A stretch of DNA of 64,000 nt from a virus. Lineage: Duplodnaviria; Heunggongvirae; Uroviricota; Caudoviricetes. The notes under the pieces were generated by a model, which was not told the DNA's origin, made no database searches, and saw nothing but the letters and a program-made list of their open reading frames with translations. Shown here piece by piece: positions 35,163 to 40,337 of this stretch (positions within the stretch are counted from its first letter, which is position 1; every line of letters starts with the position of its first letter). The stretch is taken from IMG/VR virus record IMGVR_UViG_2537561979_000003. One strand, given 5' to 3'. The position numbers and the translations under genes are program-made.

Positions 35163-35363
35163 TTATCTGCTGCCCGACATTATCTGTTTAAGCACAACCA
35201 TTTCCTGACGGCATAACACAGCAATAGCGGTCCTGGCACCAATTTGCTTACTAACCAGGTATTGCTTTATCTTGCGGCGACTCACGCCATCAAGAAGCAT
35301 CTTTAACGCTTCACGGGACAATTTGTTGTATTTGCGTGCCATTAATCTACTCCGCAGAACCAT
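35163..35363 (-). CDS. small basic protein (PdcA-like by position)
   Basis: 66-aa ORF overlapping the doc 3' end. Confidence 0.3.
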
Positions 35364-35727
35364 ACAATCTACGTAACGTGGCGGCGACAGAAGATACAGA
35401 TATCTCGCCAGTCGCAGCGCCTACAGTAAGGTCTGCCAGTTCAGGTGAATCAAATACCTGCACCCCGTTACGGCGTAGAAATAGCAGCGCACTGTTTAGC
35501 GCGGTACGCTTATTGGCATCATTGAATATATGCCCTCTCGCTGTAGCCACCAGGTAGGTGGCGGAGACTTCGAAAAGGTCGGTGATCTCTTCGTAGGCAA
35601 CTCTGGCCTGAACTCTCCCGATAATGGCCTCTGCCCTACCCGGATCTGACATTCCCGGCAGGCCGCCGTAGCGGTTTATATTCGCATCATGAAGCGCAAT
35701 AAGTTCTTCCGGTGATATATGCCTCAT
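35347..35727 (-). CDS. doc: Doc toxin (Fic-fold kinase), 126 aa
   Basis: [92 protein letters not shown]... matches P1 Doc. Confidence 0.93.
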
Positions 35728-35948
35728 TATCGGTTAACCAGTTCCTTGTTGGTGGAGTCCAGGGTGTCAAACAGGGATGCAAATTCAGCATCCAGCGCCG
35801 CTTTTTTGTAGGCTTCGAAAGTAGCCTTGCTGACAATTACTGCTGGCTCACGGCCTCTGCGGGTGATTTCAACCTCTTCCCCGGCTTCAACATTGTTGAG
35901 CACTTCAGAAAGGTTGCCGCGCGCGGTACGGAAGTTAATGGATTGCAT
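35727..35948 (-). CDS. phd: Phd antitoxin, 73 aa
   Basis: [73 protein letters not shown]; stop overlaps the doc start. Confidence 0.93.
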
Positions 35949-36020
35949 AAACACCTCGTGTACTCGTTATGTGTACACAATTATAAACTTCACAGGCATA
36001 AAGCACCAGCACTTTGCAGC

Positions 36021-36410
36021 TTAAATCACCGGACAATCATCAAATTCCCCACTTCGGGCATCATTAATGACATGAGTGATCACACCAAACACAGCATTAC
36101 TCCCCGTGCATCCATCGTCATCCACTGGTAACGCCTCTTTCTTCCCGGTGCTTAAATCCTCCAGGTGCTGGCGCGGATACTTTCGGTATCTCTTTATGCG
36201 ATATTCACCCTCCATAGCGCACACAAGCAGCGAACCATCAACTGGAGTAAGCGAAGAATCAACCACCAGCAAAGCACCCTGCAATATTCCCTCACGGTGA
36301 TGGCTATCAGCTGCCCGCATGAAGTAGGTTGCTGATGGATGTCTAATTATCTGCTGATCAAGAGAAATTCGGCTTTCAACATAATCCGCCGCAGGAGAAG
36401 GGAAACCCAT
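36021..36410 (-). CDS. humD: HumD (UmuD' homologue), 129 aa
   Basis: LexA/UmuD-type peptidase S24 domain; SOS box immediately upstream. Confidence 0.8.
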   Translation of the reverse strand: MGFPSPAADYVESRISLDQQIIRHPSATYFMRAADSHHREGILQGALLVVDSSLTPVDGSLLVCAMEGEYRIKRYRKYPRQHLEDLSTGKKEALPVDDDGCTGSNAVFGVITHVINDARSGEFDDCPVI

Positions 36411-36430
36411 AGCGTTTTACCTCAAAAATA

Positions 36431-36446
36431 CTGTTTATCTATACAG
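36431..36446. promoter_or_regulatory. LexA (SOS) box
   Basis: CTGTTTATCTATACAG matches CTGT-N8-ACAG, within TACTGTTTATCTATACAGCA. Confidence 0.7.
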
Positions 36447-36761
36447 CATACATTAAAGAAGCACCTTTGGTGCAAACGCGTTATGTACATCAACCACCGC
36501 TGATGATTTTTGTGCGCTTTGCTACTATTCATCACCGCGGGGTCAGCGTAACCTCGTTGCCAATCAGTTAATAAGGAATTAGCTATGCCTAATCGCATTC
36601 CTCTCGATCCTGTATTGCCCAAAAATTTTGACTGCACTCCTAACGAGAAACGCTCTAAAGCTCAGCTGGACGCCTAGTGGGACCATCCATATGGGGTTAC
36701 ACAACCTGACGGGAAAATTGTAGTTTATTGTCTGAATGGTGGGGCGTGGGACCGTCCATCC

Positions 36762-37169
36762 GTGCTTTGTTTGGCAGATAACTATGATGAAGCCTGTGAA
36801 CTTGCCGAAAGACAGCAGGCAAGCTGGGTAAAAACACGGTCTGAACCGACATTCATGTTTTCAAAAGAACCGCCATTTATACTGGCGAGGATGCCGCAGC
36901 GACCGGATCATCAACAAGAAATTGTTGCTGAATTTTCCTCAAGGGATGAGATGAATCTCTTCTCATTAAAGCAGGAAGAAAGGGATCGCGTCGAAGTGTC
37001 TCCAACTCTCGACCACAACCGGATGAACCTGGCCCAGCTCGCCTGGTACAGCAAAGAATTAGAGATGTCTATTGCCCGGCTTGAAAACGAAAAAGCCGCT
37101 ATCCAAGTCCAGCACGAAGTAGTTCTGAACCGGATTAGAGAAATGCAAAACGATAACAGGGGATTTTGA
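36762..37169 (+). CDS. hypothetical protein with C-terminal coiled coil; start unresolved (no in-frame ATG with SD)
   Basis: Open frame extends upstream to 36678; a 30-codon ORF with good SD (36585-36677) sits in another frame just upstream. Confidence 0.35.
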   Translation: MLCLADNYDEACELAERQQASWVKTRSEPTFMFSKEPPFILARMPQRPDHQQEIVAEFSSRDEMNLFSLKQEERDRVEVSPTLDHNRMNLAQLAWYSKELEMSIARLENEKAAIQVQHEVVLNRIREMQNDNRGF

Positions 37170-37526
37170 ATGGCTAAAATCGAGTACCATCGCGATCGCG
37201 GTAATTACCTGGAAATATACGATCATGAATCTCTTAACGATATCAACGATGCGTTATATGAATACTGTGAAAAAACGAGCATCACAGATGCACCTGATGC
37301 ATTTGTCGAGCTGCCGGTATATCTCCGCGACATCTATGCAATACGAACACCGCCCGTATCGGTGATTCACATTGGCTATGTCCGCCTGTCCATCGAAGAA
37401 GATGAAGATCGTTATATCGTGCGCCACTATACATTGGACAGAAAAGAACTTCCTAATGAATGGAACATGAGTAATTTCTACAACGGTGAATATGGCTTAA
37501 AATCCGCTAATAATTTACGGTCATAA
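37170..37526 (+). CDS. hypothetical protein, translationally coupled to the upstream ORF
   Basis: TGAATG stop-start junction; 118 aa; no recognisable motif. Confidence 0.4.
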   Translation: MAKIEYHRDRGNYLEIYDHESLNDINDALYEYCEKTSITDAPDAFVELPVYLRDIYAIRTPPVSVIHIGYVRLSIEEDEDRYIVRHYTLDRKELPNEWNMSNFYNGEYGLKSANNLRS

Positions 37527-38371
37527 TCTATACAGGCATGTATAACAACAACGAGTCTATTAGCTGTCAACAACGTTATTTCCTCAAATAAGAAAAAGCA
37601 GAAAACAAATTATTTAAGGTCACAAATTGTGGCCTTGATGGAGGAGGGAGGCTTATTGGCTATGGCTAAAAATCAAATTAGACACTTCATGTTGCTGTAG
37701 CTCATCAAGATCCGAGGCCACAAAACCTTTTCCGAAAAACTTCACAAGTAACTCACTAGCCGCATCATTGTCACCTATTACACGAAAGTCATACGGCAAC
37801 GTCGCAAGTTGACGATGTAATCCTGCTGAGAAAGTCGAATCTAACAGCGCCCAGAATTCCCACCGCAGGATAATACTCGCCTCTTAATACTGTATATATG
37901 TTGTTACGATATGTTTTTCTGTCTCTAAAAAAAGATGTTTGAAGGGGATAAAAATATACAATTCCAACAAACGTTATTTTTAACAATTTTTTTCTTTGCG
38001 TTGACTTTCCCGGACACCTTGTCTGACCGAAGGTGCGCGAAAGCCACTTTTTCCTTCCTGAGTTATCCACAAAGTTATGCACTTGCAAGAGGGCCATTTT
38101 CTACATATTGTGGTGGCTAACAGATGAAATGAATGTAGATTAATTGAAGATAAGGAGAAAATTTGAGATGCAATCATGACGTTAATAGATAGGGTCTGCA
38201 TTACAGACCCCACCCGCATCAAGGAATTAGCCGTTCCCTGATGTTTTTCCGAAAACATGTGCCGTAAGCTCACGTTAACGACTTTCATTCACCGAATCCA
38301 ACTATATAGGGGTTGGGTTTCTACGTCAACGTGAGCAAGTGCACCTTTACATTTGACAAGGAACCACCTGA

Positions 38372-38508
38372 ATGAACGCTTTTTTTCAGTTCCTGAGTGC
38401 ATTTTTAGATGCGCCTATTATTAGCCAGATTCTGGCTATTATCCTCATCATCGTTTTGATTTTGCTTTTAAGGTCAGTAAAAAATGGAATTATGCACTGG
38501 CTTACTTA
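38372..38508 (+). CDS. candidate 45-codon hydrophobic peptide (type I toxin-like), unverified
   Basis: MNAFFQFLSAFLDAPIISQILAIILIIVLILLLRSVKNGIMHWLT; TTGACA about 20 bp upstream; lies in an otherwise non-coding AT-rich spacer. Confidence 0.25.
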
Positions 38509-38584
38509 ATGTTTCAGTGAAACATTAAAATCTCCTTGATGTGGAAACAATCATTTTCTGTATGTGCTGGTGGGCACCTGTAGT

Positions 38585-38947
38585 TCAGCTTTCGTTGGCA
38601 TTTAACTTCGTCTTTGCTTTCTCCACCAGCAACTTCCAGATGCCTATTTCATTAGCAGCCGCCTTGATGGCGGCATAAAAAGCATCTTGCTGATCGTAAC
38701 GCTGGATCTGTTTTTTCAGTTTTGCCTCCACCAATTTAATTTCATTACGTGCTTTCTGAAGCCGCATCACCGCCCGGTTACGTCTGTTCTTGTATAGCGT
38801 GTTAATCTCTGACAATTGCTTTAATTTACCAGCCTGACTGCGGATTATCGCCTCCCTGGCTTCTGCCGTGCGTCTCATCTGATCTCTTAAGAGTTCACCG
38901 TTTTCGATAATTCTTTCAAGGTGTTTGATGTGATCTGCAACTCTCAT
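38585..38947 (-). CDS. hypothetical protein
   Basis: 120-aa ORF, basic and helical. Confidence 0.45.
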   Translation of the reverse strand: MRVADHIKHLERIIENGELLRDQMRRTAEAREAIIRSQAGKLKQLSEINTLYKNRRNRAVMRLQKARNEIKLVEAKLKKQIQRYDQQDAFYAAIKAAANEIGIWKLLVEKAKTKLNANES

Positions 38948-39825
38948 ACTTCACCCTCGCTTGTATCACCAGCGTCCACCAACGACAATAAAGCCCTGGC
39001 CATCTTATGAACCAACAGTGCATCAATAATGCCAAGCGTATGCCCCGGCTTAATGTTTAATGCTGCCTCAAGATGACACCTTTCCAGACCGCTTTTCTCG
39101 GCTTGTTTATGATGATATGGCGTAATAACGTCGCCCAAAACACGGCTAATTCTTTCTCGTAATTGCTGGGTGCCAGCACACTTGATCGCTGTATCGTGGA
39201 GACGGTTAACCAGTTCGCGATAAACATGCGGCTTAATGCGGATACGTTCACCGGTGACGCCCTTTCCTGGCGTAGGCACCGAACTATCCGGAATATCCGG
39301 ATAGTTGCCAGCCAGTCTACGCAAAACAGCCTTAATTGCATCAATACGGTCATCATCAACTTTTTCTACAATATTGGAATTTAAATACTTCGAAGCCTTG
39401 CTATGCCAATCGCTGGTTTTAGGGTCTTGTCCATCCATCAAACGCCAAGCTTCAGCGATTAACTCATAGCCAGTAACAGTGGCTTCCTGCGCATCACCAA
39501 TCAGTTGTGTGATCTCTCTTTCAAGCATGCTTAGAGCGTTAGGCATTGGTTTTTCTTCCGGTACTACTGGAACGGGGGGAGCGGCGTAGACCTCAATAAT
39601 TCCATTATCAATAGGCCATTCTCCATCCTTGAGGTAGTCACTTGTGCCGTCAACTTGCTGTTCTGCAATGTGGAATGCACCTATTGGTTTTGCTTCCAGT
39701 GATGCCAGAGCAATTCGTGCCAGTTCTTCCGCTTCTTCTGCTGGCAGTACAACGTTGCTACCAGGTCCGTATGTTTCGCGCCACTGCTTGATTGTCAGTA
39801 GTCGCTCTTTGGTAATAGTGATCAT
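38944..39825 (-). CDS. hypothetical protein
   Basis: 293-aa ORF overlapping its neighbours' stops and starts. Confidence 0.5.
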   Translation of the reverse strand: MITITKERLLTIKQWRETYGPGSNVVLPAEEAEELARIALASLEAKPIGAFHIAEQQVDGTSDYLKDGEWPIDNGIIEVYAAPPVPVVPEEKPMPNALSMLEREITQLIGDAQEATVTGYELIAEAWRLMDGQDPKTSDWHSKASKYLNSNIVEKVDDDRIDAIKAVLRRLAGNYPDIPDSSVPTPGKGVTGERIRIKPHVYRELVNRLHDTAIKCAGTQQLRERISRVLGDVITPYHHKQAEKSGLERCHLEAALNIKPGHTLGIIDALLVHKMARALLSLVDAGDTSEGEV

Positions 39826-40337
39826 GCCGCGTTTCCTTCTTTCTTATTAACAATTACACCGTCATATATTTCATTAAGGTGCCCTCTTAACTCCATGCGC
39901 CTTAATGCAGATAACATGTAATCGCATTCAACCTGCTTATTTCCAGTAAATGGCTTATCGTCAGGATTACCCCAACAGCAATTACCCTTGGGCCACCCAT
40001 GTACTTTCCGTACTCTTCCGTTAACAACGTGAAGTAATCCCCAGCCAGGAGGTAAATCCTCAATTGAAATAATTCCCGGCTCACTAATAAAGAATCGCCA
40101 GTCGCCCATGCCAAGTGAGGGATTTTTACGGAAACGCTTTTTTCTATCTGCCAACAAATCAGCACGAGAACACTTCGCCTCTATCAGGCATGATGCTGAA
40201 TTTCTGAATCCCATAGCATCTGGCTGTTCTCCGGTACTGGTTACAGCTATAAAGCGGTCATGAAAACAAACCTTGAACCCGTTGCGCTTAAGGAACTTGT
40301 ACGCAATCTGACAGAGTTCGCGGTGTGTTAACGCCAT
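39822..40337 (-). CDS. putative PD-(D/E)xK nuclease-fold protein
   Basis: Candidate motif ...QPDAMGF...CLIEAKCSRADLL...; AAGGAG SD upstream of MALTHREL. Confidence 0.4.
   Translation of the reverse strand: MALTHRELCQIAYKFLKRNGFKVCFHDRFIAVTSTGEQPDAMGFRNSASCLIEAKCSRADLLADRKKRFRKNPSLGMGDWRFFISEPGIISIEDLPPGWGLLHVVNGRVRKVHGWPKGNCCWGNPDDKPFTGNKQVECDYMLSALRRMELRGHLNEIYDGVIVNKKEGNAA

Follow-up and report, generated by a model that had tools for sequence, protein, structure and literature searches.

In type I loci such as hok/sok of plasmid R1 and ldrD/rdlD of E. coli, an antisense RNA pairs with the leader of the toxin mRNA. The hok/mok/sok and ldr/rdl loci share a layout in which the peptide gene lies behind a long structured leader with a small translated element and the antisense RNA is made constitutively. 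Here we describe a locus that may have a similar layout, in the spacer at positions 37527-38584 of a 64,000-nucleotide stretch of viral DNA (IMG/VR virus record IMGVR_UViG_2537561979_000003), which we call the window. Over 37400-38700 the window is 98.4% identical, at full length, to P7, Salmonella phage SJ46, and several isolates named 'P1' (megablast), and by this measure it is a P7/SJ46-type P1-like phage-plasmid. Few phages are as widely used or as well annotated as P1, and resistance genes are now being spread by P1-like phage-plasmids. The right half of the spacer is a module that we tentatively read as a small membrane peptide under the control of an antisense RNA, arranged as in type I toxin-antitoxin systems. 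We favor this reading with less than even confidence.

By analogy with hok/sok and ldrD/rdlD, the module appears to combine a single-pass peptide that is small and hydrophobic, a leader that is long and structured and holds a small upstream reading frame, and a predicted short RNA. This RNA would come from a strong, constitutive-looking promoter on the opposite strand, and its complementarity would be to the leader and not to the start of the toxin. It may also be compared with these loci in its position on a plasmid-like replicon, where it adjoins the addiction module phd/doc. Nevertheless, there are clear differences. The peptide has no similarity to the Hok/Gef, Ldr, Fst, or TisB profiles. 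The upstream open reading frame (ORF) of 21 codons ends 130 nt before the peptide start, and so overlap coupling of the mok type is absent. A 5'-3' fold-back of the hok type is predicted in the mRNA of the window but was rejected as a feature of the module, being absent from the most divergent group of related loci (the 83% clade, below).

The module may also resemble the LexA-controlled type I locus tisB/istR-1, by analogy, in having a site for a host stress or cell cycle regulator in the toxin promoter and a constitutive small RNA on the opposite strand. However, the regulator would be DnaA rather than LexA, the nearby LexA site being broken, and the RNA would be fully cis-antisense, with no sequence similarity. 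The c4 antisense RNA of P1 (immI) is likewise a phage-encoded regulatory antisense RNA of the same genome family, but it belongs to another locus and has another target (ant), and no Rfam family matched the interval 36000-40000 at E values up to 1.

A preliminary description of the window had listed motifs in the spacer and had likened it to an insertion hotspot or a small toxin locus. Every feature in that list is present in the sequence, although the coordinates were mostly 1 nt off. The motifs are a mixture of relics, a promoter feature that was already known, and one lead, namely the peptide ORF together with an antisense unit upstream of it.

A Conserved Module in the Right Half of the Spacer

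The spacer has two parts with different origins: debris from 37527 to about 38040, and a self-contained module from about 38040 to 38580. A blastn search found 38140-38520 in 229 PLSDB plasmids and in 216 of the 5426 complete E. coli genomes. The carriers are without exception P1-like elements, from Escherichia, Salmonella, or Shigella, and form three clades at about 100, 97, and 83% identity, the last of which we call the 83% clade. About 95 plasmids match the window-type module at an identity of at least 99%. The P1 reference matched 37400-38700 by megablast in the right half only (from 38033, at 96%).

Homology between the clades begins near 38005 and ends at the stop codon of pmgV. On the left the module is followed by hot (in P1 and the 83% clade) or by debris and upf93.6 (in the window type); on the right it is followed by pmgV, by type I restriction-modification genes, or by other ORFs. 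Because the homology is bounded while the neighbors differ between clades, we conclude that about 540 bp travels as a unit. The synteny comparison that had been proposed for P1-like genomes thus gave a clear outcome, a unit kept in three clades between unrelated flanks. The whole humD-phd-doc stretch is present in 477 plasmids, against 229 with the module, which is therefore common but accessory.

Conservation within the module was graded as the identity of the window type to the 83% clade, segment by segment (Table 1). The non-coding block is more conserved than the neighboring ORF, which suggests that it acts as an RNA or is dense in regulatory sequence. The block has as its left edge a strong Shine-Dalgarno sequence and as its right edge the -35 hexamer of the antisense promoter described below.

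It is quite improbable that nothing here is functional and that the conservation reflects the recent common ancestry of the plasmids alone. It is true that the P1-like elements of E. coli, Salmonella, and Shigella that carry the module are all close relatives, and that scans of 185,579 species-representative genomes with a peptide pattern and with 20-mers found nothing. Yet identities between 38% and 91% alternate in sharply bounded blocks within 540 bp, and these blocks coincide with promoter hexamers, a Shine-Dalgarno sequence, and an ORF. Scans of viral and metagenome sequences for divergent relatives returned the same three clades and nothing further, and no paralogue of the module was found elsewhere in the window.

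The 45-Codon Membrane-Peptide Reading Frame

The hydrophobic, transmembrane-type ORF of 45 codons that had been noticed at the right of the spacer is present (Table 1). The peptide has a GRAVY (grand average of hydropathy) score of 1.56, a best 19-residue hydropathy of 3.1, and a charged tail after the hydrophobic core. By hydropathy it has the generic properties of a type I toxin, being shorter than 60 residues and hydrophobic with one transmembrane segment.

A lack of conservation had been named as grounds for discarding the ORF, but the ORF is conserved. All three clades share one start, one stop, and one length, and 78 of 81 complete loci carry an intact frame; of the other three, two carry IS1 in their final codons and the third has a frameshift close to its end. 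Between the window type and the 83% clade there are 33 substitutions in the ORF (12 synonymous and 21 non-synonymous), with a ratio of non-synonymous to synonymous rates (dN/dS) of 0.41. Most replacements exchange I, V, L, and F or exchange R and K. The N-terminal FQFLSAFL(D/N)AP is invariant, and the C-terminal positive charges shift in position yet persist. When the same substitutions were placed at random in simulations, the probability was 0.075 for the frame staying open, 0.14 for the observed BLOSUM score, and 0.06 for the transmembrane hydropathy being kept.

RefSeq lists the peptide as hypothetical protein WP_000123562.1 and the SJ46 annotation as the hypothetical J46_0085; the ORF is not called in the reference annotations of P1 and P7. 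Neither variant of the peptide had a match above noise in Pfam, NCBIfam, or PHROG. A word-indexed search of 5.8 billion proteins returned only frameshifted or insertion sequence (IS)-truncated versions of the same locus, and a HMMER scan of 1.84 billion representative proteins returned only four disrupted variants of it; in the representative protein library the peptide is present solely as such damaged variants. One naturally altered locus is that of pNord122_1 (L084 3732-4560; also L081), where IS1A lies in the last codons and changes the terminal IMHWLT to VMTPTY, leaving the frame at 45 codons.

The ORF had also been called promoter-proximal, which the geometry does not allow. The TTGACA at 38353-38358 is only 13 nt before the ATG, with no -10 hexamer before the start codon, and was ruled out as a promoter on this ground. 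The sole credible promoter on the same strand would be about 250 nt upstream of the ORF. Two upstream ORFs were considered as peptide genes and rejected: in the 21-codon ORF nearly all changes are non-synonymous, and an ORF of 25 codons has no Shine-Dalgarno sequence. The stop codon of the 3-codon mini-ORF overlaps the start of the 21-codon ORF, and in the 83% clade the mini-ORF is a bare start-stop.

Fixed sequestration of the Shine-Dalgarno sequence of the peptide was not found in the folded leader; this sequence is paired in every clade, but the partners differ and the z-scores are weak. At the other end of the ORF a hairpin straddles the stop codon (Table 1). In the 83% clade it has a shorter stem (AAUGUC/GAUAUU) in which one G-C pair has become G.U, a change that would be tolerated on the + strand only.

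The Minus-Strand Promoter and the Predicted Antisense RNA

The conserved block contains, on the minus strand, the best promoter match in the region, TTGACG-17-TATAGT. Both hexamers and their spacing are present in 81 of 81 loci. A transcript from this promoter is predicted to start about 7 nt downstream of the -10 hexamer, near 38294. Read on the minus strand, 38185-38294 has a minimum free energy of -43.2 kcal/mol (z = -4.9; none of 200 shuffled sequences was as good). The + strand of the same interval reaches only -29.1 kcal/mol (z = -3.3), because the G.U pairs of the minus strand become A.C mismatches.

Conservation of the structure was assessed with RNAalifold on six distinct sequences. 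The consensus contains 39 pairs, with one compensatory change and three one-sided consistent changes (G.U or U.G to A-U or U-A). The compensatory change, T>C with A>G (U-A to C-G), is in the hairpin GGGTCTG/CAGACCC at 38192-38210, which is conserved. Of the remaining variation, three substitutions are in the loop of stem-loop 2, one indel is in a linker, and four alignment cells break pairs, at helix ends. The preliminary description had listed this hairpin together with a second, ATGTTTT/AAAACAT (38241-38258). Both are present, but the second is not conserved in the 83% clade. An additional inverted repeat of 12 nt, GCTCACGTTAAC at 38268-38279 and GTCAACGTGAGC at 38325-38336 (11 of 12 positions complementary), flanks the minus-strand promoter and extends into its -35 hexamer; it could form a long-range RNA stem on the + strand or be a protein-binding site.

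An antisense RNA had been expected across 38372-38508, over the ORF itself. No conserved source of such an RNA was found. Transcripts from two predicted promoters, P1upfM and P2upfM, would cross the peptide ORF in antisense, but the hexamers of both are lost in the 83% clade, and they were ruled out for this reason. What is conserved is the predicted unit upstream of the ORF, from 38294 to about 38185.

The P1 record NC_005856, whose map runs in reverse to the + strand of the window, shows three small minus-strand ORFs (upfM, upfN, and upfO) and three predicted sigma-70 promoters in this interval, along with a note on two DnaA boxes. That upfM, upfN, and upfO, or upf91.3-91.7 of P7, are real minus-strand protein genes is scarcely tenable. 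They are annotated in NC_005856 and AF503408, but in the 83% clade upfN and upfM are both thrown out of frame by indels, and upfM has also lost its start region. The opening ATG of a 102-codon minus-strand ORF in the window (upf91.4 of P7) is AAG in P1, and the RefSeq pipeline calls none of the upf frames. The earlier judgment that the spacer contains no credible long ORF therefore stands, since the 102-codon minus-strand ORFs, including upf91.4, are broken in related clades.

An nrdA-like Promoter with DnaA Boxes

The left end of the module corresponds to the promoter of the E. coli ribonucleotide reductase operon nrdAB. Positions 37973-38101 (129 bp) are 94.6-95.4% identical to the ypaB/nrdA intergenic region in 5426 of 5426 E. 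coli genomes searched. The nrdA-like promoter with its DnaA boxes is real, but it had been annotated previously in P1: the older record M95666 gives an 'nrdA-like promoter' and a 'dnaA box' on the strand that is the + strand of the window.

The DnaA-box-like site of the preliminary description is thus present as part of this promoter and is not an independent find. Matches to the DnaA-box consensus in the 64-kb window number 2, against 2.2 expected by chance, and the box is meaningful only because it lies inside the stretch homologous to the E. coli nrdA promoter, not from the motif itself. Neither box varies across the clades, L083 (a phage-plasmid of a different family), and E. coli, and in alignment the boxes and the -35 hexamer TTGCAA are identical to those of E. 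coli nrdA, in the same register and with the same spacing. The homology ends just before the -10 hexamer, where the alignment diverges after CATTTT; the phage has TATTGT and E. coli has TATCTT. Downstream of the -35 hexamer, the -10 and leader of the host are replaced by unrelated phage sequence. The putative core agrees with the consensus at 8 of 12 positions, which is below the threshold of the promoter scanner, and its predicted start is near 38118. The copy in the window accordingly differs from the nrdAB promoter in lacking the host -10, downstream part, and leader, and it would drive a small peptide gene rather than a reductase.

DnaA-ATP has been reported to act on the transcription of nrdAB in two ways, as a repressor when its level is high and as an activator when it is low (PMC13220808). 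The boxes might instead act on the DNA itself, as an origin-like or DnaA-titrating site that is not part of a promoter. We regard this as very improbable. The two boxes are adjacent and perfectly conserved and lie in AT-rich DNA, but they stand within the 129-bp copy of the nrdA promoter at the same position relative to the -35 hexamer as in E. coli, they number only two, and no iterons or unwinding-element repeats were seen nearby.

In P1 (L001 2514-2569) the annotated near-identity to nrdA covers only 56 bp, and the left part has diverged to about 64%. The contrast with 95% over 129 bp in the window suggests renewed exchange with the host chromosome. L083 (1520-1870; family rep_cluster_488) also carries an nrdA-like promoter with both DnaA boxes, adjoining an intact LexA box. 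A strong bidirectional terminator (AAAAAAGCCCAG...CTGGGCTTTTT) follows about 75 nt downstream of that promoter, and the two together look like a short RNA gene under a borrowed promoter.

A Candidate Antisense-Controlled Peptide

The homologies, the pattern of conservation, the intact ORF, the promoter motifs, and the fold energies described above are the grounds on which we tentatively favor an antisense-controlled membrane peptide. In such a locus the nrdA-like promoter would fire rightward, with DnaA setting the amount of peptide mRNA, and the transcript would consist of a leader of about 250 nt followed by the 45-codon ORF. The invariant minus-strand promoter would fire leftward, facing the nrdA-like promoter over about 175 bp, and would yield an RNA of three stem-loops with a length of about 110 nt or more. 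Because the two predicted promoters face each other, the leader of the peptide mRNA would be fully complementary to this RNA, an overlap that depends on the predicted start site of the nrdA-like promoter. The antisense RNA could then pair with the leader around the conserved Shine-Dalgarno sequence and the upstream ORF and so block translation or trigger cleavage; the peptide under this control may be toxic. The layout fits type I toxin loci better than the preliminary description had grounds to propose: the ORF and a promoter on the opposite strand are conserved, and a well-folding RNA is predicted in the putative leader, upstream of the ORF rather than over it.

Several results weigh against this arrangement. 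The evidence that the 45-codon ORF is a real gene is moderate, not strong (p of about 0.06-0.08 per test), and the substitutions show no excess at third positions (12, 8, and 13 by codon position). Profiles of Hok/Gef, Ldr, Fst, TisB, Ibs, and ShoB gave no match to the peptide in Pfam (to an E value of 10) or NCBIfam. The -10 hexamer of the nrdA-like promoter is weak, both in the window and in the 83% clade (TACTGT and TACCGT). For the predicted RNA, covariation is not significant (82 of 500 shuffles) and rests on one event, because the lineages are few (three closely related clades); the structure rests mainly on thermodynamics. The 3' end is uncertain because no clean U-tract terminator follows the third stem-loop. 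The RNA stays clear of the ribosome-binding site of the peptide itself, and it has no trans complementarity to the peptide start region beyond that of shuffled sequences (68 of 300). A literature search found no paper that links P1-like elements with type I toxin-antitoxin systems, and a preprint on the P1vir transcriptome makes no mention of this interval. CRISPR interference and deletion, which covered upfN, upfO, and hot but not upfM, showed these genes to be non-essential for lytic growth (PMC10695390), a result that is neutral on a toxin-antitoxin role.

The remaining point concerns hot, which encodes a homologue of the DNA polymerase III theta subunit. In P1 and the 83% clade the predicted RNA could be just the 5' leader of hot. 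If this held for the module in general, the block and the minus-strand promoter (the PupfN of the P1 annotation) would serve hot, and the ORF would be unselected in T-rich DNA. We consider this account unlikely, and we give no better prospect to its corollary that PupfN is a lysogeny or early promoter. It is in keeping with the gene order of P1 and the 83% clade, in which hot immediately follows on the minus strand, with a third stem-loop that does not form a clean terminator, and with ORF statistics that are only moderate. However, the window/P7/SJ46 type has lost hot and kept the block, in a form shared by the about 95 plasmids mentioned above. Furthermore, the start, stop, length, Shine-Dalgarno sequence, hydrophobic core, and C-terminal charge of the ORF survive the 33 substitutions, and the right boundary of the module takes in the ORF, whatever follows.

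The peptide might also be harmless, an accessory membrane peptide (for example for exclusion or lysogenic conversion) made from the nrdA-like promoter, with the opposite promoter acting by transcriptional interference or being irrelevant. Conservation of the ORF, the DnaA boxes, and the -35 hexamer would be expected in that case as well, no toxin family matches the peptide, and variants with altered C termini, by IS1 insertion or frameshift, persist in nature. This possibility nevertheless seems doubtful to us, since a simple leader would explain neither the block conserved above the ORF nor the invariant antisense promoter, and the fold energies favor the minus strand.

If the locus is an antisense-controlled peptide, P1 has an unrecognized RNA-controlled membrane peptide next to phd/doc, and the reference annotation of this interval as upfM, upfN, and upfO is wrong. 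A host promoter tied to the replication cycle would have been co-opted, which would bear on the maintenance of plasmid-prophages and on the sensing of host replication by phage-plasmids. A bolder version, in which P1-like phage-plasmids have, besides phd/doc, another addiction or abortive module controlled by RNA, with a captured nrdAB promoter, a membrane toxin gated by DnaA-ATP and replication, a constitutive antisense RNA, and a toxin of unknown family, appears rather improbable. If its peptide is toxic, the locus would add a new family of toxins to a phage that is very well studied, but the evidence is comparative and the taxonomic range narrow. Should the antisense-controlled peptide prove wrong, the DnaA box and the LexA half-site would still be explained, the one as part of a promoter homologue and the other as a broken relic.

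The Left Half of the Spacer and the Neighboring Genes

Table 1. Coordinates of features in and around the spacer, with identity to the 83% clade for segments of the module
Feature	Position	Strand	Details	Identity to 83% clade
doc, phd, humD	35347-36410	-		
upf94.2 and upf93.6 (P7-type genes)	36585-37526	+		
Remnant of toprim-domain gene, 5'-truncated	37653-37853	-	Last 66 codons and stop; tblastn	
Stretch homologous to upstream region of umuD-like (S24 peptidase) gene	37870-37972		Alignment with L083	
Homologue of E. coli nrdA promoter upstream region (ypaB side)	37973-38101	+	Sequence identity	
DnaA box TTATCCACA	38063-38071	+	Motif scan and direct reading	
DnaA box TTATGCACT (8/9)	38075-38083	+	Motif scan and direct reading	
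Putative nrdA-like promoter core	38083-38111	+	-35 TTGCAA 38083-38088; 17-nt spacer; -10 TATTGT 38106-38111	
DnaA boxes and promoter				0.88
First 36 nt past predicted start (with 19-nt insertion)				0.38
Conserved non-coding block, 187 bp	38149-38335			0.91
Shine-Dalgarno AAGGAG in block	38152-38157	+		
3-codon mini-ORF in block	38168-38179	+		
21-codon upstream ORF in block	38176-38241	+		
Predicted antisense RNA, about 110 nt	38185-38294	-	Three stem-loops; third contains hairpin 38192-38210	
Sigma-70-type promoter TTGACG-17-TATAGT	38301-38329	-	10/12 consensus; P1 prediction 'PupfN'	
Linker				0.61
45-codon ORF, predicted single-pass membrane peptide MNAFFQFLSAFLDAPIISQILAIILIIVLILLLRSVKNGIMHWLT	38372-38509 (including stop)	+	Shine-Dalgarno AAGGAA 38358-38363	0.76
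Hairpin AATGTTTC-AGT-GAAACATT	38508-38526	+	Straddles ORF stop; no U-tract following; direct reading	
3' tail				0.64
pmgV	38585-38947	-		

From 37527 to about 38040 the spacer is, as judged by its homologies, recombination debris made up of decay products. The toprim remnant is 85% identical to residues 109-174 of the 174-residue toprim protein of another element (L006; tblastn, E = 2e-35), and its DNA is 89-90% identical to intact genes of other phage-plasmids. The 5' two-thirds of the gene is lost from the window, and what is left is by its truncation non-functional debris. In P7, IS903 lies inside the remnant, at a site that corresponds to 37781-37789 of the window, with a 9-bp duplication.

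The adjoining stretch, 37870-37972, is about 75% identical to many plasmids. It contains the LexA half-site of the preliminary description, as the half-box TACTGTATAT at 37888-37897, with the core CTGTATATAT at 37890-37899. At the same place L083 has a full LexA box, TACTGTATATGCATACAGTA, just upstream of a umuD-like gene. Relative to L083 the window has an 11-bp deletion that takes out the second half, leaving no CTGT-N8-ACAG palindrome. Because of this deletion we interpret the half-site as a damaged operator that no longer has a gene to regulate. The half-box is thus present, but as a relic and not as a regulatory find. The LexA box that precedes humD at 36430-36455, TACTGTTTATCTATACAGCA, is intact and is annotated likewise in P1 and P7; this box, near 36440, is the working LexA box of the element.

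The spacer has a G+C content of 0.35-0.45, against 0.45-0.50 in the flanks, and so it is AT-rich as described, but only mildly. The suggestion of an insertion hotspot has support. The spacer has been hit twice independently by insertion sequences, by IS903 in P7 and by IS1A within the final codons of the ORF in pNord122_1. Its left half consists of recombination debris, and pmgT-humD is listed as one of eight hypervariable regions in P1-like elements (PMC9603915). Beyond the left edge of the spacer, the upf94.2 homologue (36585-37169, + strand) differs from its counterparts in P7 and SJ46 by a TGG to TGA change at 36676, in codon 31. This nonsense change has probably inactivated the gene in the window element.

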